Made by a program: the position numbers and the translations under genes. Of a stretch of DNA of 6,615 nucleotides, positions 1-6,615 are shown one piece after another. The notes beneath the pieces are model-generated. The model did not search any database. It was given only the letters and a program-made list of their open reading frames with translations, and was not told the origin of the DNA. The DNA is taken from IMG/VR virus record IMGVR_UViG_2713896834_000003, positions 1 through 6,615 of that record; one strand, given 5' to 3'. Numbering within the stretch: position 1 is the stretch's first letter; every line of letters starts with the position of its first letter. The DNA comes from a virus (lineage: Duplodnaviria > Heunggongvirae > Uroviricota > Caudoviricetes).

Positions 1-109
1 ATTATATCGAATGTGATTACAATCGGTGGCGGCGGCACAGTTGGTGTGGCGGCCTCAGTCCGGAACAATTTGAAAACAAGAACCTCGCTTAGGCCTGTGT
101 CCATATTAC

Positions 110-574
110 GTGGGTAGGATCACTAAAGGTGTGCAGCCGATTACAAATTTTGACGCCAACCGCTACCTCGGAAAATGGTATGAAATAGCTCGCCTCGAGA
201 ACCGGTTCGAACGTGGTCTGGAACAGGTCAGCGCTACTTATGGAAAACGGAACGACGGAGGGATTCGTGTACTTAACCGTGGATACGATCCAACGAAAAA
301 TAAATGGAGCGAGAGCGAAGGTAAAGCATACTTTACTGGAGATACTAAAACTGCAGCATTGAAGGTTTCGTTTTTTGGCCCCTTCTATGGTGGCTATAAT
401 GTAATCAAACTGGATGATGAGTATAAGTATGCTCTTGTCAGTGGTCCGAACAGAGAATACCTATGGATTCTGGCAAGGACCCCAACTATTCCAGATAAAG
501 TAAAAGCAGACTATGTGCGAACCGCTCAAAAGTTGGGATTCAATGTCAATGAATTATTATGGGTTAAACAATAA
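110..574 (+). CDS. blc: Blc-family bacterial lipocalin, apparently 5'-truncated (no signal peptide, no lipobox, no ATG start)
   Basis: The 154-codon frame carries lipocalin motifs as in enterobacterial Blc (NFDANRYLGKWYEIAR, EGKAYFTG, KVSFFGPFYGGYNVI, YLWILARTP). The frame is closed by TGA at 71-73; the first possible start is GTG at 110 with no convincing Shine-Dalgarno, and there is no ATG anywhere in the frame. Stop TAA at 572-574. Confidence 0.55.
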   Translation: MGRITKGVQPITNFDANRYLGKWYEIARLENRFERGLEQVSATYGKRNDGGIRVLNRGYDPTKNKWSESEGKAYFTGDTKTAALKVSFFGPFYGGYNVIKLDDEYKYALVSGPNREYLWILARTPTIPDKVKADYVRTAQKLGFNVNELLWVKQ

Positions 575-601
575 AATCCCTACCCGAAATAATACTTATT
601 A

Positions 602-629
602 GAAAAAAACCAGCCTTTGGGGAGGCTGG
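602..629 (-). terminator. Intrinsic terminator for minus-strand transcripts downstream of Q (tR'-like); the same hairpin lies just 3' of the convergent lipocalin ORF
   Basis: Perfect 7-bp GC-rich inverted repeat CCAGCCT (610-616) / AGGCTGG (623-629) with a 6-nt loop. On the plus strand it is preceded by a 7-A run (603-609), which is a U-tract immediately after the hairpin on the minus-strand RNA. Confidence 0.55.
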
Positions 630-688
630 CTAAATCAGGAAACAAGCTGTTATATGATAATAACTACGTTGTGATTCCAACATTTAAA

Positions 689-717
689 ATGTTAGACTAA
701 TGACAATCAGACAGCAA
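689..717 (-). promoter_or_regulatory. Candidate late promoter (pR'-like) immediately downstream of Q
   Basis: On the minus strand, TTGCTG (717..712), a 17-nt spacer, then TAACAT (694..689), located between the Q stop (730) and the hairpin terminator. Position is analogous to lambda pR'/tR'. Motif match only; the -10 is weak. Confidence 0.25.
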
Positions 718-729
718 CTTTTCCTTTAA

Positions 730-1107
730 TTATTTCGAACAATCAGCATCCATCTCCAATCGGAGATCCAACACCATCAGCATACCCTCCACTACGCCCT
801 CAGCTTTCTGAAGCATCCTGCCAACCCAACAATCAGATCGCCCATGCTTACGTGCAAGCGCCATAAAAGTCATGCCGCCGACATAATAGTCCACCAATAA
901 ATCATGCAAATCGCTGTTGTTCTTTTTCAGACGGGCCATGCACCCGCAAATGATCATCGCATCATCGTCACAACATTGCGGGCGAGATTTTACTTTTGAA
1001 GGAATTAATCCCTTAAAACCGGCGGCAATGGACGACCAAGTCACATCTTCATGATTATTAGCCGCCCACGCTCCCCAACGCTCAAGAACCATCTGAATAT
1101 CACGCAT
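730..1107 (-). CDS. quuD: Late-gene antitermination protein Q (phage 82 / DLP12 QuuD type)
   Basis: Translation from ATG at 1107 ([33 protein letters not shown]..., Cys-rich [16 protein letters not shown]) matches my recollection of 82-type Q / QuuD. GGAG lies 7 nt upstream of the ATG. The track's longer form begins at a TTG five codons upstream. Position after the nin genes fits. Confidence 0.8.
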
Positions 1108-1192
1108 CAACTTACTCCACAAAAATCAGACCAGAACGCCAATCACAAGCAAAAATCAACAAAACAGTATTAGTTGATTGTTATCTCTGACT

Positions 1193-1333
1193 TCATACTC
1201 CTGCTCCTGTCAGGGTTTTGGCGTAATTCTTCAGTATTCGGTAATCGGTCAAAACAGAACCGGGGAAACGATATAAGCGCAGATGCCCCCAGCGGTGGCG
1301 AAGAAGTTCTGCCATATAAAACTCAAACATCAT
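1193..1333 (-). CDS. ylcG: Small protein YlcG-like (46 aa), between rusA and Q
   Basis: Not in the ORF track (too short). Minus-strand ATG at 1333..1331 overlaps the rusA stop (ATGA). Translation [46 protein letters not shown], stop TGA at 1195..1193. Size and position match ylcG of DLP12-type prophages; sequence identity not verifiable from memory. Confidence 0.45.
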
Positions 1334-1692
1334 TCATTCCCCATTTCGGTGATGGTCAGTTCCAGCCTCCCACCTTTGGTAACAGGCATCTTCACAACGC
1401 GGTAATCAACGACCTGAGCATCATCCAGCCAGAAACCTGCTTTAGTGAGTGCGTCAAAAGCGGCTTTTTGCAGATTATCCAGGTCACGGCGACGGCGATC
1501 CGGCATGTGGCACTCAATGCGGATTTTCACAGGCATAGCCAGGCCGATATCCAGCATTGCGTTTTTAATGATTCGGGCGACGTTATCGCGGTATGCCTGC
1601 CCCTCTGCGCTGACGTGCGTGCGCCCGCGATTATGGCGGTAATAGCGATTATTGCTCGGAGGCCAGGGTAATGTGATGTTGTAGGTATTCAC
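1330..1692 (-). CDS. rusA: Holliday junction resolvase RusA
   Basis: Residues [119 protein letters not shown] match RusA essentially end to end. Probable GTG start at 1692..1690 overlapping the ybcO stop (GTGA); the track's longer N-terminal extension is rejected. Confidence 0.9.
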
Positions 1693-1979
1693 GCCTTGAT
1701 TACCCCCTCTTTCATCCAGATAACCTGCGTTCTCGCCATACCTTCCAGCGCGCATTCTTTTGCATATGCGGCATCGACAAAATGTGTGCGGCGGTCGATT
1801 TCGTCGTGGCAGGCAGAACATGCAATGGTGGCAATCAGGTCTGGCGGTTTGGTACCGGTGCCGCACAATCCAGTCAGCCGGATATGTGCCAGTACAGACG
1901 TTTCAGGGTTGCCATTACATACGCCAGGGGTTCTTACCTGGCATTCCCGACCACGCGCTGCTTTTCTCAAATCAGCCAT
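1689..1979 (-). CDS. ybcO: DUF1364-family phage protein (YbcO-like, Cys-rich, putative zinc-binding)
   Basis: Translation from ATG at 1979 ([34 protein letters not shown]...[11 protein letters not shown]...) matches DLP12 YbcO as I recall it. AGGAGG lies 4 nt upstream. Start overlaps the ninE 3' end. Confidence 0.8.
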
Positions 1980-2142
1980 GATTCCTCCTTGCTGCCAGTC
2001 GCAACCATTTTTTATCAACCAGGCTGGCGGTATATCCGAGCAGTGTTGGTATTTCGGATGGCTTCAGCTCAGGTTTACGCTTACGACGATTTGGTACTCT
2101 GTAGATGTGTCCGTTCATGACACGAATAAGCGGTGTAGCCAT
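1972..2142 (-). CDS. ninE: NinE-family protein (56 aa)
   Basis: Hand translation of the minus strand gives [59 protein letters not shown] at 2142..2140 overlaps the ybcN stop (TAATG). Matches DLP12 NinE in length and position. Not in the ORF track. Confidence 0.7.
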   Translation of the reverse strand: MATPLIRVMNGHIYRVPNRRKRKPELKPSEIPTLLGYTASLVDKKWLRLAARRNHG

Positions 2143-2597
2143 TACGCCTCCTGCTTGTCGCGCAGCAGCTGGAACTCGCAGCTCTGCGGAATAGTCAGGT
2201 GGCAGCCAATATTCATCGCCCAGGCTTCAACCTTACACAGGAAGACATACATCTCTCCGGCATCAAGATCGGAGGTATGGCGTAACGACTGGATAGTGGT
2301 GATTTCACCGGTTACGACATCAACCAGTTCTTTGGTTTCATAACCGAGGTATGTGTGTTTGAGAGCTTCTTTTACCCATGCTGCGGTAGCGAACGATTTC
2401 CCCCTGCTGATAAGGTATTCACTGATTTCGCTGTACCACATGTGGCTGAGTGCATTCTGGGAAAGACTGCGTTTCTCACGCCACGGTTTAAGCACCATGC
2501 GAAAGCATTTTCCGTCCTCCAGATAAGGCTGGATCTGCTGGCCGATAGCGGTGAAGTTGCCGCGATGTAATTTGATGCCATCTTGTGGTAGGTTCAC
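2142..2597 (-). CDS. ybcN: NinB/Orf-family recombination protein (YbcN-like)
   Basis: 151 aa containing the NinB-type RSLSQNA motif at the same relative position as RSLDQN in lambda NinB. GTG start at 2597 with GGAGGTG 3 nt upstream. First gene of the nin-type block. Confidence 0.8.
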
Positions 2598-2787
2598 GCT
2601 TCACCTCCGCAGAGGTCAAACGCAGGATGCAAAAAATCGCAGGTGCATTTCTGCATCTGTGAAGGGAGAAGAGAGTTTGGATTGTATGTGCGCATAAACG
2701 TCCCCGTTTAGCGCAGAAGTCACCGGAGTTGTTCAAGCTCCGATGACTTTATTATTACGAATTGATTTTACAAAATCAAAAGGTATG

Positions 2788-3240
2788 TTAGTGACGCGGG
2801 TCTGTTATTATGCGAGAAGGGTTTCCGTATAAAACAAGGACCTTACTTCCTTGAGTAAATAACGGATCTTTGCCTTGAACAATGGTCATTAAATTCCCAT
2901 TCTCAGTTTCGACAACATATTCCATGCCTGTTTGTTTTGTTGCTGAAGATTCGATTGCTGCCCCGGCAATACCACCAATGACTGCACCACCAACGGCACC
3001 AACGATATTAGAACGAACTCCCCCACCAAGCGCAGAACCAGCGGTTGCCCCCACGGCAGCCCCAGCAGTCCCGCCTAACGCGGAAGTCCCACTGATATCA
3101 ACCCCCCTGGCACTAATAACTGTACCAGCGATAGTTCGATTAACCATGCCCACAGAGCCAACAGAATAACTATTTGGCGATATATTTTGTGCGCATCCAA
3201 CCAACACTAAGAGTGGAGCAATTACGAATAATCGCTTCAT
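2788..3240 (-). CDS. Outer-membrane lipoprotein, SlyB/Pcp-like with glycine-zipper domain
   Basis: Signal peptide plus lipobox (MKRLFVIAPLLVLVG|C, Ala at +2), then a long Gly/Ala zipper (ALGGTAGAAVGATAGSALGGG...VGAVGGAVIGGIAGAAI), then a C-terminal segment (GMEYVVETENGNLMTIVQGKDPLFTQGSKVLVLYGNP) resembling the SlyB C-terminus. Start ATG overlaps the upstream gene's stop (ATGA). Confidence 0.7.
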   Translation of the reverse strand: MKRLFVIAPLLVLVGCAQNISPNSYSVGSVGMVNRTIAGTVISARGVDISGTSALGGTAGAAVGATAGSALGGGVRSNIVGAVGGAVIGGIAGAAIESSATKQTGMEYVVETENGNLMTIVQGKDPLFTQGSKVLVLYGNPSRIITDPRH

Positions 3241-3797
3241 TTAGCTACCCTAACAGGAAACATTGGACGAGAAAGATCAACACTTTCTAATGCTTGCAAG
3301 AACTGCGTTATGTTGTTTTGCACCGCGCGATTAACAGATTCGCGTGCTCGAACAATACCGTAGAATGCGTAACTGGCTGGAACAGTACCGGTAGACTCAA
3401 TATCCTGCGTATATATAATATCACCATTCGCACGGTTGATTATTTCATACCTTGCAATTGCTTTAGTTGTCATTGAAACACCAAAAGCAGGAACGTCAAG
3501 AGCCAACACTTTAACATTTAAGCTAACCGTATTTGGTGAACTATCACGAAAAATAGTCATTCGGTCGAGTGCTTCCTGCAAAGATTCACGCCAAATTGGA
3601 GTTATAGCCTCCATACCAGCAGTGATATCCCCTTTCTGCTCATCTGGACGAGCAAGTGATACCGTTAATGACTTAATTTCAGCATCTATTTTTTTCTGGC
3701 TAACTCCCACGTTAGGTGTTGAAAAATTCAATGGTGGCACACTAGCGCAACCTGTTAAAGAACCAATAATCATGGCTAATAATATTATCTTCTTCAT
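3237..3797 (-). CDS. Lipoprotein of unknown family (186 aa), first gene of the two-gene cargo operon
   Basis: Signal peptide plus canonical lipobox (MKKIILLAMIIGSLTG|C, Ala at +2, so predicted to be sorted to the outer membrane). AAGG-type SD 6 nt upstream of ATG 3797. Translationally coupled to the downstream SlyB-like gene. I do not recognise a family. Confidence 0.7.
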   Translation of the reverse strand: MKKIILLAMIIGSLTGCASVPPLNFSTPNVGVSQKKIDAEIKSLTVSLARPDEQKGDITAGMEAITPIWRESLQEALDRMTIFRDSSPNTVSLNVKVLALDVPAFGVSMTTKAIARYEIINRANGDIIYTQDIESTGTVPASYAFYGIVRARESVNRAVQNNITQFLQALESVDLSRPMFPVRVAK

Positions 3798-3959
3798 AAA
3801 TTTACCTTATTGTTATAACCAAAGGAATTATAAAGTAAAAAAGTTCACTATCACTAGCCATTAACGACATCAATTTCAGAGAAACATGGTACTCATTTCC
3901 ACAAATTTGACACAAGTCATTTTCATCTACATATTCCATCATACTTGATGCATATGTTA

Positions 3960-3988
3960 TTGAAGCCTCTATCCTATCCGTTCATAAT
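3960..3988 (+). promoter_or_regulatory. Candidate sigma70 promoter for the small membrane ORF
   Basis: TTGAAG (3960-3965), 17-nt spacer, CATAAT (3983-3988), in the AT-rich divergent intergenic region, about 65 nt upstream of ATG 4054. Motif match only. Confidence 0.3.
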
Positions 3989-4053
3989 AGCAATAGTTAC
4001 CCGGGTGATAGTACCTCTATGATTACTCGTCTTTCTGATTGATTGGATTAAAT

Positions 4054-4245
4054 ATGCGCGCCAAAATTTATCAACTTTCGTTATGGATATTTATTTCGTT
4101 TCTAGCGATCTATGCCTTTATTATCTATAAAGGTTCTTATATTGGAGTAGCATTGCATCAAATTGCTTGGATCATCATTATTGCCTCTGGCTTGATTGCT
4201 AGGCTAACTAAACCAAAGCAAAAACCAATTTCGTCCAATAATTAG
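4054..4245 (+). CDS. Small hydrophobic protein (63 aa), two predicted transmembrane helices and a basic C-terminal tail; function unknown
   Basis: Translation MRAKIYQLSLWIFISFLAIYAFIIYKGSYIGVALHQIAWIIIIASGLIARLTKPKQKPISSNN. Very AT-rich and divergent from the lipoprotein operon. Weak RBS. The track starts it at an upstream TTG (4039); ATG 4054 is preferred. Confidence 0.4.
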   Translation: MRAKIYQLSLWIFISFLAIYAFIIYKGSYIGVALHQIAWIIIIASGLIARLTKPKQKPISSNN

Positions 4246-4281
4246 ACATGTATTAAAAAATGATATTTTTATGTACATAGT

Positions 4282-4575
4282 CTATTGAAAATTGCCGCGA
4301 TAAAATGCCAACACCCGCTTCATCGCGGCACTCTGGCGACACTCCTTGAAAATCAGATTCGTGCTCACCTTTCCTTCCCGTTCTTCCCTGGTAGCGAACC
4401 GGTAATACACCGTTCGCCAGACCTTACCATCAATAACTAAGATTCCTGTCCGCGCCATTTTAGCCGCAGCCTGGTTTATGCTGGTTACTGTTGCGCCTGT
4501 TACCGCAGCAACGTCCTGCGCACAGAAGCTCTTATGCGTCCCCAGGTAATGAATAATTGCTTCTTTTCCCGTCAT
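4282..4575 (-). CDS. ren: Ren protein (Rex exclusion resistance), lambda-like
   Basis: 97 aa, MTGKEAIIHYLGTHKSFCAQDVAAVTGATVTSINQAAAKMARTG...WRTVYYRFATREEREGK..., matching lambda Ren as I recall it. ATG overlaps the P stop (ATGA). Confidence 0.9.
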   Translation of the reverse strand: MTGKEAIIHYLGTHKSFCAQDVAAVTGATVTSINQAAAKMARTGILVIDGKVWRTVYYRFATREEREGKVSTNLIFKECRQSAAMKRVLAFYRGNFQ

Positions 4576-5273
4576 ACACTGGCTCCTTTCAGTCCGAACT
4601 TAGCTTTGATTTCTGCAATCTTCGCCAGAGCCTGTGCACGATTTAGAGGTCTACCGCCCATGACAGGAAGTTGTTTTACTGGTTCAGGGATCGCCTCACC
4701 ACGGTTAATTCTCGCAGTCATATGGACAAGCTCATCTGCGGCCTTACGGCGTAATTCCGCATCAGTAAGCGCATTGGCCCGCATGTTCTGATACAGGTTG
4801 GTAACCAGCCAGTAGTGCGCGTTTGATTTCCACGGATAAGACTCCGCATCCGGATACAGGCCTCGCTTCCGGCAATACTCGTAAACCATATCAACCAGCT
4901 CGCTGACGTTTGGCAGTCCGGCGATAACGGATGCTTCTTCCCGGCACCATGCAACAAACTGCCCGGGTGATGGCAGGAATGGTCGATTCTGCCGACGGGC
5001 TACGCGCATTCCAGCGTTAACCTGTTCCATTGTGGTGATCCCGTTTTCCCGAAAAGCCAGCACCCACTGGCGGCGGATTTCGTTCAGTTCGTTCTGGTCC
5101 CGGTTAGCCAGGCTCGCTGGGAAAGTTGCCAGTAACTGGCTGAATACACCGTTGATTATCTGCGCTACCTGCTGTACCTGCGGCTTTTCGTCGTACTGTT
5201 CCGGCATGTTATTGGCGATCCGGCACATCTGCTCACGGTCAAAGTTAACCATCTGTGCGGCGATGTTTTTCAT
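4572..5273 (-). CDS. P: Replication protein P (DnaB helicase loader), lambda-type
   Basis: 233 aa, matching my recollection of lambda P along its whole length (MKNIAAQMVNFDREQM...AKFGLKGASV). ATG overlaps the O stop (ATGA). Confidence 0.95.
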   Translation of the reverse strand: MKNIAAQMVNFDREQMCRIANNMPEQYDEKPQVQQVAQIINGVFSQLLATFPASLANRDQNELNEIRRQWVLAFRENGITTMEQVNAGMRVARRQNRPFLPSPGQFVAWCREEASVIAGLPNVSELVDMVYEYCRKRGLYPDAESYPWKSNAHYWLVTNLYQNMRANALTDAELRRKAADELVHMTARINRGEAIPEPVKQLPVMGGRPLNRAQALAKIAEIKAKFGLKGASV

Positions 5274-6199
5274 AAATCCACCCCGTAAATCCAGTCAGTG
5301 TTCGTCAGGTCGAGTTTTGGTTTGCCGGCTGTCACGCCAGCCTGTTGCTTGTTTCGGTTGATTTCGAGCTGGGTCCACTTGTCGCGGAGTTTGGCCGGAC
5401 TCAGCACGTTACCGGACCAGAAGTTGTCCTGGCAGGCCCAGCGGAACAGTACACACATGTCGCGGTGGTTACGTCCATCACGTTCACGCATCAGACGGAT
5501 ATCGTTAGCCCACCCTGCAAAATTCGGTTTTCTGGCTGATGGCGCGATGGTCTTCACCATGTCAAACATCCACTCTGCGGCGGTCAGGTCTTCTGCTGTC
5601 CCCCACTTGCTGCCGTTCTGAATCGCAGCATCCGCTTTCACCACAGGAAGGTCGTTTTCTGGCAGGTCAGAGGATTCGCCAGAATTCTCGGACGAATAAG
5701 GTTTTATATTGTCTTTTGTTAGTTTGTCTTTTGTGTTTACCTGATTCGGGTAAGTGCCTTTACCTGATTTGGGTAAACTTTTCTTACCTGATTCAGGTAA
5801 ATTTACCTCTTTCAGGTAAACTTTATTTTTCTTACCTGATTCGGGTAATGTTGACCATTCACTGACCACATTATTAATGCCTATATTCCGCCCGCTCTGA
5901 ATAAAAATCCCACGCTTTACCAGAACACTTTTTGCAGCAGAACACTTGTGCGGCAATATCCCGGTCAACTCGGAAAGTTGCTCGTTGCTCACCCAATCCA
6001 GTTTTTTATTAAAGCCATATGTTTTGCGCATGACAGCCAGGAAGACCAGAAGCTGGTGCTGTGTTAATCCGGCCAGCATTACAGCTTCCAGCAACTCATT
6101 TGCAATGCGCGTATAACCATCATCGAGATCTGCCACGCGCGGCTCCTTTTGTGCCGCATCCGGCACTGGAAAATTGAATATCTCAGCAGTGTTTGCCAT
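5270..6199 (-). CDS. O: Replication initiator O (origin-binding), lambdoid
   Basis: From ATG 6199 (GGGAGG upstream) the N-terminus MANTAEIFNFP parallels lambda O MTNTAKILNFG. The C-terminal region (WANDIRLMRERDGRNHRDMCVLFRWACQDNFWSGNVLSPAKLRDKWTQLEINRNKQQAGVTAGKPKLDLTNTDWIYGVDL) closely matches my recollection of lambda O. The track's longer ORF begins at an in-frame ATG at 6289 (alternative start). Confidence 0.9.
   Translation of the reverse strand: MANTAEIFNFPVPDAAQKEPRVADLDDGYTRIANELLEAVMLAGLTQHQLLVFLAVMRKTYGFNKKLDWVSNEQLSELTGILPHKCSAAKSVLVKRGIFIQSGRNIGINNVVSEWSTLPESGKKNKVYLKEVNLPESGKKSLPKSGKGTYPNQVNTKDKLTKDNIKPYSSENSGESSDLPENDLPVVKADAAIQNGSKWGTAEDLTAAEWMFDMVKTIAPSARKPNFAGWANDIRLMRERDGRNHRDMCVLFRWACQDNFWSGNVLSPAKLRDKWTQLEINRNKQQAGVTAGKPKLDLTNTDWIYGVDL
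5690..5848 (-). other. Replication origin (ori) embedded in the O gene: iteron array plus adjacent AT-rich region
   Basis: Five iterons at 5737-5848 followed, in the direction of O transcription, by an AT-rich stretch (about 5690-5736). This is the same architecture as lambda ori inside O. Confidence 0.65.
5737..5848. repeat. Five 17-bp palindromic iterons (consensus TTACCTGATTCGGGTAA), putative O-binding sites
   Basis: Direct repeats at 5737-5753 (TTACCTGATTCGGGTAA), 5760-5776 (TTACCTGATTTGGGTAA), 5784-5800 (TTACCTGATTCAGGTAA, a perfect palindrome), 5803-5819 (TTACCTCTTTCAGGTAA) and 5832-5848 (TTACCTGATTCGGGTAA). Confidence 0.8.
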
Positions 6200-6285
6200 A
6201 ATTCCTCCCGCAATGAGTGTGTTACGATTTGCACCTGAAAGTCGGTTCTGTTCCAGCAGACCGGCTTTCGCCATTTCTGAACCTG

Positions 6286-6615
6286 TCATATCGCCCCCAG
6301 CATGGTAGTAACCATCGCCATCAATGGACCAGCCAGATCTGGGTCCACACGAAACATCGACACAATACCTTCACTAATTTCCTTCAGTTTCTGGTGGCGT
6401 GGTGCGTTGAGAATGACAGCCTGTTTTGCCTCACTGAGTTCCTTTTCCATTTCAGCCAACCTAGCCATGAAGCTATCCTGCTCAACCAGGTAACCGCGAT
6501 ATTCCAGCGGTAGTACCGCCAGAATTGCCGGGGTCAGTTCACGCACGTTATTTCGGTATTTTTCAGAATCGAATTTGTTATCGAGGAAGCGGAACAGCTT
6601 CTGGCGTGCACGGCT
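6286..6615 (-). CDS. Hypothetical protein, C-terminal part only (5' end lies beyond the window); occupies the position upstream of O
   Basis: The minus-strand frame is open from the window edge (…SRARQKLFRFLDNKFDSEKYRNNVRELTPAILAVLPLEYRGYLVEQDSFMARLAEMEKELSEAKQ…TMLGAI) to TGA at 6288..6286. It does not resemble lambda cII. Its stop overlaps an ATG in the O frame. Confidence 0.5.
   Translation of the reverse strand, partial: SRARQKLFRFLDNKFDSEKYRNNVRELTPAILAVLPLEYRGYLVEQDSFMARLAEMEKELSEAKQAVILNAPRHQKLKEISEGIVSMFRVDPDLAGPLMAMVTTMLGAI

Follow-up and report, generated by a model that had tools for sequence, protein, structure and literature searches.

The junction between cII and the replication gene O of phage lambda carries, on the strand opposite the rightward pR transcript, a leftward promoter, pO, and the short OOP RNA. 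pO has been located at the 5′ end of O, and a −10 mutation that inactivates it lies 2 bp from the first O codon; convergent transcription from pO and pR has been described in a dual-promoter model (PMC3985674). The YdaT protein of CP-933P binds between ydaS and ydaT, activates the equivalent of pRE and is the functional equivalent of CII (PMC9986795; PMC8630535). The present analysis concerns a stretch of 6,615 nt, positions 1 to 6,615 of the viral record IMGVR_UViG_2713896834_000003 (hereafter the window, meaning the whole stretch). On its minus strand runs the right-hand early operon of a lambdoid prophage: ydaT, a spacer of 86 nt (6200..6285), O, P and ren. The main subject of the analysis is that spacer, which probably holds a gene for an OOP-like antisense small RNA (sRNA).

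A third described system is STnc1080 of Salmonella Typhimurium. In strain D23580 this RNA of 62 nt (1102118-1102179) has the cII analogue of Gifsy-2 (1101725-1102099) on one side and O (from 1102184) on the other; over 17 listed lysogenic growth conditions its level is mostly hundreds to about 1,750 transcripts per million, with a lowest value of 47, whereas cII and O are near 1 (PMC7067206 supplement). In strain 14028 it is on the minus strand, antisense to O (PMC4014581), and it is associated with ProQ (PMC5391140). In the searchable papers its function is uncharacterised and no link to OOP is drawn.

The locus is a common one. In 2415 of 5426 complete Escherichia coli genomes the 716 nt around the site recur at an identity of 95% or more, strain 042 (NZ_CP042934) being one that carries the region, and the spacer itself was found in 2258 of the 5426 (42%), with no feature annotated within it. 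A preliminary description of the window had left open the identity of the gene upstream of O and the choice between two ATG codons for the start of O. Taken together, we hold it likely that the upstream gene encodes a CII-equivalent YdaT, that O starts at 6199 and that the spacer carries an OOP-like antisense sRNA gene. YdaT, a lambda-like O start and an untranslated gap are known features; what is added is an unannotated E. coli member of an OOP-like, STnc1080-type sRNA family.

A structured antisense element in the spacer

Relatives were gathered as 79 ydaT loci from different enterobacterial species, with YdaT identities of 40-74%, together with phage loci, and gave 69 distinct spacers. A scan of genome contigs with a single protein as query returned 0 relatives; an alignment-based query found them. 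The nucleotide sequence of the spacer is conserved across the Enterobacteriaceae (alignments A1 and A3). RNAalifold, applied to the 69 spacers in the antisense orientation (alignment A3), gave a consensus of a short 5′ hairpin and a 13-bp hairpin, 17 pairs in all, 12 of them with compensatory changes. Over the alignment 97.2% of the cells at these pairs are paired, against 84.6% in shuffles, and 0 of 500 shuffles reached the observed value; changes on both sides of a pair account for 125 cells, against 37 in shuffles, and slid controls were all at most 50% paired. Helix 1, the 5′ hairpin, has 4 pairs, with 96% of cells paired and both-side changes at 2 pairs; helix 2, the putative terminator hairpin, has 13 pairs, with 97.5% of cells paired and compensatory changes at 10. 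The variant stems GGTG/CACC, GCTG/CAGC, TCTG/CAGA, GAAG/CTTC and GCCAG/CTGGC are clearly independent solutions.

On the plus strand of the window, the 5′ hairpin (6210..6232) joins GCAA at 6210-6213 to UUGC at 6229-6232 and is weak in this sequence. The terminator hairpin (6237..6269) sets GAAAGUCGG-U-UCUG against CAGACCGGCUUUC around a loop at 6251-6256. The T-rich tract after the stem, TTTCGCCATTTCT (6266..6278), ends 8 nt before the ydaT stop codon; in other variants this tract is canonical, as in TTTTTCTTTT. The plus-strand RNA of 6210-6279 folds at −24.1 kcal/mol, with a z-score of −3.26. Judged by this covariation and fold, the spacer is a conserved structured antisense element on the plus strand, which the preliminary description had missed.

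A putative promoter for the element lies across the start of O. In a scan of both strands of 5900-6615 the sole promoter-like site was TTGAAT-17-CATAAT with an upstream TG, on the plus strand at 6174-6202. Its putative −35, TTGAAT (6174..6179), stands opposite O codons 7-9, and the extended −10, TGcCATAAT (6194..6202), has a hexamer that is the reverse complement of ATTATG and overlaps the O start codon. The predicted transcription start, G6210, is 7 nt after the −10, as in lambda, and abuts the O Shine-Dalgarno sequence. Among the 69 relatives the TGn is present in 64, a hexamer CATACT, CATAAT or CATTAT in 68, and the final T in every one; this invariant T is the position of the inactivating lambda pO mutation. 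Codon 2 of the open reading frame (ORF) after the spacer is NCA in 64 of the 69 (TCA 32, ACA 14, GCA 12, CCA 6), a choice that keeps the antisense TGn of the extended −10 while the amino acid changes. The pattern holds even where the ATG opens only an ORF of 13-15 codons before an unrelated replication gene.

Twelve loci have this last arrangement. There the Shine-Dalgarno sequence and ATG after the spacer open an ORF of 13-15 codons, for example MTNACTKHQAKGA and a stop, and this short ORF ends right at the ribosome-binding site of another replication gene (MSNVAYADFAA...). Such an ORF is possibly a leader peptide or a relic O start, and may have been kept for the antisense −10.

The reach of the element beyond ydaT loci was seen with a covariance model, R1, built from the 69 sequences after trimming (alignment A4), none of them from Gifsy or any other Salmonella source. 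R1 matches the window at 6209-6279 on the plus strand (74.6 bits, E 1e-17) and gave full-length antisense-strand matches in 14 loci outside the model set, ten of which had first been scored as lacking the element, with an extra gene sitting between it and ydaT. It matches a Salmonella phage, SEN34, and a Klebsiella phage, where the cII-position genes are not ydaT (PHROG 725; a 73-aa ‘CII family protein’ in the record), and matches Gifsy-1 and Gifsy-2 at full length on the antisense strand with 72.4 bits. Lambda gave no match to R1. In all 69 aligned loci and the 14 further ones the element is antisense and lies between the cII-position gene and the replication gene; as it is present whatever the cII-position gene, it belongs to the spacer before the replication gene and not to ydaT.

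The extra gene was noted in nine loci. It encodes a protein of about 85 aa (beginning MNHIEFIEKHVREEL), lies about 100-120 nt past the ydaT stop, between ydaT and the sRNA element, and has a homopolymeric G tract that varies from 6 to 11 G between species, not in multiples of three. The differences in tract length could be slippage and phase variation, or sequencing error.

The Gifsy-2 match coincides with the RNA already named. STnc1080 was carried from D23580 to the Gifsy-2 record by two anchors (repressor 1100990 = 6864; cII end 1102099 = 7973), which put it at 7992-8053 of that record and at 1504-1565 of the Gifsy-2 locus, inside the R1 match at 1498-1566. Its 5′ end is a G exactly 7 nt after TGA-CATACT, and its end is 19 nt past the Gifsy-2 cII stop.

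Database names for the element are lacking. Rfam has no family for the window RNA, for STnc1080 or for lambda oop, and the searchable literature gave no paper linking STnc1080 or YdaT-type phages to OOP and no oop-like RNA in YdaT-type phages. Three candidates from the lists of known RNAs were set aside. The only Rfam match in the window, STnc450 (6209-6276, plus strand, 15.8 bits against a gathering threshold of 37), is the msrA 3′ region of the Salmonella core genome and is not matched by R1; the likeness is a chance one of hairpin and terminator. STnc1380, considered as the Gifsy-1 counterpart, adjoins sarA and a transposase, far from the cII-O junction. The EDL933 RNAs ncR1085800 and ncR1481381, abundant and Northern-positive at 72 and 99 nt, are in urease and tellurite islands and not in a lambdoid prophage.

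What the RNA, or its promoter, may do

The mechanism proposed here begins with the sigma-70 promoter of pO type, TTGAAT-17-TGcCATAAT, whose predicted activity would drive a plus-strand gene within the spacer. Transcription would start at about 6210 and stop once past the 13-bp hairpin and the T-rich tract, some 10 nt before it reached the ydaT stop; the 3′ end at about 6274 is placed by analogy with STnc1080. The predicted product (6210..6274, from R1, the fold and the Gifsy-2 homologue) would be an RNA of about 65 nt, every base of which has its complement in the stretch of the pR transcript between ydaT and O. Two modes of action are suggested by lambda, where the OOP-based analogy rests on Krinke and Wulff 1987, as cited in PMC7067206 and PMC3985674. 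In the first, the RNA would pair with pR read-through transcripts to give double-stranded RNA, which RNase III would cut; the cut would leave the ydaT message with an exposed 3′ end, and ydaT would be expressed less and no longer be coupled to O. In the second, alone or together with the first, firing of the promoter would interfere with convergent pR transcription into the origin and the replication genes. As the RNA does not overlap a CII-type coding sequence, and the element travels with the replication module, appreciable weight is given to promoter interference or to a safeguard function.

The safeguard idea can be put more specifically, as a tentative proposal. If an RNA that, unlike OOP, leaves the CII-type coding sequence untouched is also made constitutively and in abundance in lysogens, it might act mainly to safeguard lysogeny, silencing leaky pR read-through at the replication genes, possibly via ProQ, and might not tune CII during infection. 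In the same tentative proposal, antisense sRNAs at the OOP position would form a family that is widespread among enterobacterial lambdoid prophages, even where the cII-type genes are unrelated, and is present in 42% of complete E. coli genomes. Of its members STnc1080 alone would have a name; Rfam has no entry for the family, and the searchable papers do not describe it as a counterpart of OOP.

Another account of mechanism supposes that selection keeps the leftward promoter and the terminator, and that the RNA is a by-product: convergent transcription would hold back pR transcripts bound for O and the origin, as has been proposed for lambda pO, and the terminator would merely stop leftward transcription before it reached ydaT and the immunity region. 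Such an account concerns mechanism alone and is compatible with the anatomy described above. For lambda, an effect of pO activity on replication and on pR read-through that does not depend on the level of oop RNA has been described (PMC3985674). The element stays with the 5′ side of the replication gene regardless of the upstream neighbour, be it ydaT, the extra gene, a P22 C1-like cII or the gene for a 73-aa CII; and the RNA, unlike OOP, is free of overlap with the coding sequence of the CII analogue. However, conservation extends over the RNA body, the 5′ hairpin and the linker ACCUGAAAG among its parts, further than a mere terminator would require, and the high accumulation of STnc1080 and its binding by ProQ suggest a stable, functional RNA. 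This leaves the by-product account as a possibility of some substance, though we doubt it.

The strand to which the structure belongs

An inverted repeat folds on both strands, and one might place the function of this one on the sense, pR, transcript, as an intercistronic terminator or attenuator, as a site of RNase III processing, or as a device that tunes O translation, with no antisense RNA at all. The repeat does fold in the sense RNA, at a mean of −14.6 kcal/mol; with an A tract upstream and TTTC downstream it has the look of a bidirectional terminator, and it always lies just before the ribosome-binding site of the replication gene. The pattern of wobble pairs speaks against the sense strand. 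In the antisense orientation 97 cells are G.U, each of which is a C.A mismatch in the sense RNA, whereas only 8 cells are A.C, the reverse case; the G.U cells are spread over at least five different pairs. The overall 97.2% pairing on the antisense strand falls to 89.6% when the sense strand is read. In each of the 69 sequences the antisense version of the hairpin is the more stable one (mean −19.2 kcal/mol), and the 12 nt after the stem hold a mean of 7.06 T on the antisense strand as against 3.93 on the sense strand. In the window the sense-strand spacer folds no better than shuffled sequence (z +0.38). The wobbles, the stability and the T tract all assign the structure to the antisense strand. 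Moreover, the Gifsy-2 homologue is antisense and abundant while the sense operon is silent. A structure acting only in the sense transcript is an improbable explanation.

The start of O

The preliminary description had drawn attention to an ATG at 6289-6287 that overlaps the ydaT stop as ATGA and is in frame with O, and this reading of the letters is correct. It opens an ORF of 339 codons (6289..5270) and would add 30 residues, MTGSEMAKAGLLEQNRLSGANRNTLIAGGI, ahead of MANTAEIFNFP; the ATG at 6199 lies exactly 90 nt downstream and has, as was said, a GGGAGG of its own (6204..6209, minus strand), 4 nt upstream of it. Three alternatives had been offered: an N-terminal extension fused to O, an untranslated gap of 86 nt (6285-6200) with O starting at 6199, and remnants of a frameshifted fusion. 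It is the gap that the comparisons support.

The first kind of evidence is in the protein. O read from 6199 (5270..6199, minus strand, 309 codons and a stop; Phage_rep_O, PF04492, E 8.2e-34) can be aligned with lambda O over its whole length, first residue to first residue, at 67% identity (E 4e-146), and positions 1-317 of the PHROG 277 profile align to its residues 1-308. The second kind is in the spacing. Measured from the stop of the upstream gene to the first following ATG that has a Shine-Dalgarno sequence, the 69 spacers run from 85 to 109 nt in length; 26, 22 and 21 of them fall in the three classes modulo 3, and multiples of three are not favoured. From a start near the stop, the O frame is open across the spacer in 19 of the 69 relatives, no more than chance would give, as a random stretch of 29 codons is open with an expectation of (61/64)^29, about 0.25. 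The nucleotide motif GGCGAAAGCC is invariant, but its reading frame differs between phages.

The third kind is in the substitutions, counted in a separate set of 79 near-identical loci from a scan of viral contigs. There the putative extension has 10 substitutions, falling 2/4/4 by codon position, of which 4 are synonymous and 6 nonsynonymous; the last 100 codons of ydaT in the same loci have 12/3/27, of which 32 are synonymous and 10 nonsynonymous. With no codon-position bias, and with a frame that is not kept, the extension is not under coding selection; O starts at 6199. To this extent the sequence comparisons support translation of O from the ATG at 6199 behind GGGAGG, as in lambda, with the ATG at 6289 (6287..6289, minus strand) an accident of the lineage, judged from the offsets and substitutions in relatives not to be a functional start of O.

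The longer form, with a real extension of 30 residues translated from 6289 by coupling to ydaT termination to give a protein of 339 aa, has its attractions: the frame is open, the ATG overlaps the stop as ATGA and has a G-rich stretch 5 nt before it, and all 79 close relatives keep both the 89-nt offset and the open frame. The offset is kept there because there are no indels at that divergence; beyond about 5% divergence the spacer length shifts by single nucleotides. Annotation is divided. On identical DNA, RefSeq and its Prokaryotic Genome Annotation Pipeline give an O of 309 aa in NZ_CP033401 and NZ_CP051615 and an O of 339 aa in NZ_CP034966, and in 19 of 30 evenly spread E. coli genomes the coding sequence of the replication gene extends into the spacer. 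The long form must also be reconciled with the beginning of both lambda O and PHROG 277 at the 6199 methionine and with the RNA-structure constraint on the opposite strand of the same region. It is very unlikely.

Two further ideas, that a frameshift broke up a former ydaT-O fusion into the two frames and that a small protein is encoded in the spacer (MAKAGLLEQ..., say, from the ATG at 6274, which follows purines), take their appeal from the same open frame and can be dismissed almost entirely, as YdaT keeps the conserved C-terminus ...MLGAI/M and its stop in every relative, O and its homologues begin at the 6199 methionine, aligned with Met1 of lambda O, and ATG 6274 becomes AAG or AGG in many relatives with loss of the frame. 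A plus-strand ORF across the spacer, 6174-6308, has no counterpart in relatives, and small-ORF readings on both strands were rejected.

The gene in the cII position

The ORF upstream of O had been described as at least 109 codons long, running off the window and unlike cII. It does enter from beyond 6615 on the minus strand and ends at the TGA of 6288-6286, with 109 codons inside the window (6286..6615 with the stop). It is indeed unlike cII in sequence and yet in the cII position: it is of the YdaT family and lies between a Cro-like gene and O. The suggestion that it might be a novel regulator has to be given up, as the YdaT family is already known and its member in CP-933P serves as the functional equivalent of CII. 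By translation, profile and gene order the ORF is the 3′ end of ydaT, a known family of CII substitutes.

The complete gene was read in the genome NZ_CP033401 (locus L001), where it occupies 5791-6330 and encodes 179 aa. The full protein matches PF06254 (YdaT_toxin) at E 9.5e-30 and 103.4 bits, against a cut-off of 21, and the fragment in the window does so at E 5.9e-28 and 97.6 bits. PHROG 163, ‘CII-like transcriptional activator’, is matched over its entire profile (E 1.4e-67). A sequence profile of six homologues (alignment A2), run against the PDB, found residues 19-109 of 8bt1, the CP-933P YdaT, at E 1.5e-8, and 3c4r at E 2.9e-7. The entry 3c4r was deposited as ‘Uncharacterized protein’; we take it to be the YdaT of Rac.

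Gene order agrees with this identification. The L001 locus runs exo, bet, gam, kil, a DUF3037 gene with a HipA-kinase gene, and the S24-peptidase repressor; divergent from the repressor are a 76-aa regulator, a 179-aa ‘toxin YdaT domain-containing protein’, O, P, ren, the nin genes, rusA and Q. Read in the orientation of that record, the S24 repressor is on the minus strand and is followed on the plus strand by the YdaS_toxin/P22_Cro-like gene, which immediately precedes ydaT, then by ydaT, O and P; this is the position expected for ydaT. From family membership and gene order, on the CP-933P model, YdaT here may be expected to do the work of CII, as a tetrameric DNA-binding protein with a POU-type helix-turn-helix domain that would activate the leftward establishment promoter.

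A search of the ydaS-ydaT junction for an inverted repeat, including TTGATT-N6-AATCAA, found none. What was seen there by eye, outside the window at L001 5760-5795, is a direct repeat, AGTCAATT, in two copies at a distance of 19 nt, directly ahead of the ydaT ribosome-binding site and running into it; the opposite strand reads TTGACT...TTGACT and TTGATT. The repeat is a candidate YdaT-binding or pRE-like site.

Points that weigh against the antisense RNA and the short O

Several facts pull the other way and temper the joint conclusion drawn at the outset. Transcription of the E. coli copy is taken over from its Salmonella homologue, and STnc1080 itself was placed by two gene-end anchors and not by direct sequence comparison. 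The 69 spacers are phylogenetically related, so that the shuffle statistics and the Wilcoxon p-values overstate independence. Shuffled sequence, like the real one, yields a single promoter-like site per 716 nt, and the bias toward NCA at codon 2 and toward A at −3 could come partly from selection on translation initiation. In the window the 5′ hairpin is thermodynamically marginal and is absent from the single-sequence centroid structure; the T tract is interrupted and was not called by a strict terminator scan. Finally, on sequence alone, some translation from the ATG at 6289 in this lineage is conceivable.

Replication origin and neighbouring genes

Within O, at 5732-5848, lie five palindromic iterons of 17-18 bp, TTACCTGATTCAGGTAA, which constitute the replication origin; this is the only segment of O that diverges from lambda O. 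The different central segment and its iterons imply an origin specificity unlike that of lambda. One relative, E. coli EH01-18-02 (positions 1-1290 of the locus), has an O shortened to 202 codons and followed by a gene for a SIR2-family protein, as if a gene of defence type had been inserted into the replication gene.

Other genes of the region were noted. Outside the window, at L001 3001-4574, the pair encoding a DUF3037 protein and a HipA-family kinase adjoins the S24 repressor, at the place of rexAB in lambda, and may be a prophage-borne defence or toxin module. Between ren and ninB the window has two ORFs for lipoprotein-like products of 186 aa and 150 aa (glycine-rich) at 2788-3797 on the minus strand, and one for a membrane-protein-like product of 68 aa at 4039-4245 on the plus strand; all are annotated as hypothetical and are probably moron genes. 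A lipocalin (Blc-like) gene at 110-574 on the plus strand lies directly beyond the gene for the Q antiterminator (730-1122, minus strand) and is convergent with it; it may mark the prophage boundary or may itself be cargo.

Significance and comparison with known systems

For annotation, the analysis settles the choice between O proteins of 309 and 339 aa for identical DNA, which affects thousands of E. coli genomes, and gives a gene called unknown the name YdaT and the role of a CII equivalent. It also connects lambda pO and OOP, the ProQ-associated STnc1080 and a conserved structured prophage spacer, a link that was not found in the searchable papers. If the proposed reading is true, the system would let one see what an OOP-type RNA does without pairing to a CII-type coding sequence, and would bear on the old question of whether pO matters via its RNA or via transcription. 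If the RNA is expressed in E. coli as in Gifsy-2, one might approach this by changing O codon 2 from NCA to NCG, a synonymous change that would remove the TG of the extended −10 and leave the O protein unchanged.

Of the known systems, lambda offers the likeness in the promoter. Each has a leftward promoter, a putative one in the window, with a −10 of CATAAT after a TGn complementary to the region of the O start codon, and a −35 at 17 nt inside the first codons of O; read at the homologous place in O of the lambda record, the lambda site is TTGAGT-17-TGtCATAAT, against TTGAAT-17-TGcCATAAT in the window. In both the start point, predicted for the window, abuts the O Shine-Dalgarno sequence. The lambda RNA is short (77 nt), with a 5′ hairpin and a terminator hairpin, and that of the window would likewise be short (about 65 nt), with a 5′ hairpin and a putative terminator hairpin, each antisense to the pR transcript at the junction of the cII-position gene with O. 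The differences are in the RNA body, which has no sequence similarity to oop, in the terminator T tract, which is interrupted here, and in the extent of the RNA, which here would lie wholly in the intercistronic spacer and would end some 10 nt before the ydaT stop, its hairpin reaching to 6269 and the T tract to 6278. The O proteins share their start, a nearly identical P-interacting C-terminal half, and a lambda-type P and ren as next neighbours; they differ in the central iteron-binding and origin segment, with the five TTACCTGATTCAGGTAA copies in place of the lambda iterons.

YdaT of CP-933P (8bt1) resembles the protein encoded here in its PF06254 domain, in its position after a YdaS/Cro-like gene and before the replication genes, and, by profile, in its N-terminal DNA-binding region; the match to the single sequence is weak (E 1.5e-3), and 179 aa here stand against a chain of 162 residues. 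The protein of 3c4r shares PF06254 and has a chain of 151 residues. STnc1080 of Gifsy-2 is alike in its spacer of about 90 nt between the cII-position gene and O, in its antisense strand and architecture, and in its TGn-CATAxT promoter over the O start codon, with the 5′ end 7 nt after the −10. It differs in its upstream gene, a P22 C1-like CII analogue (PHROG 725) and not YdaT, and in the sequences of its stems, where the changes are compensated; and its expression has been measured, whereas that of the E. coli copy is presumed from the likeness.

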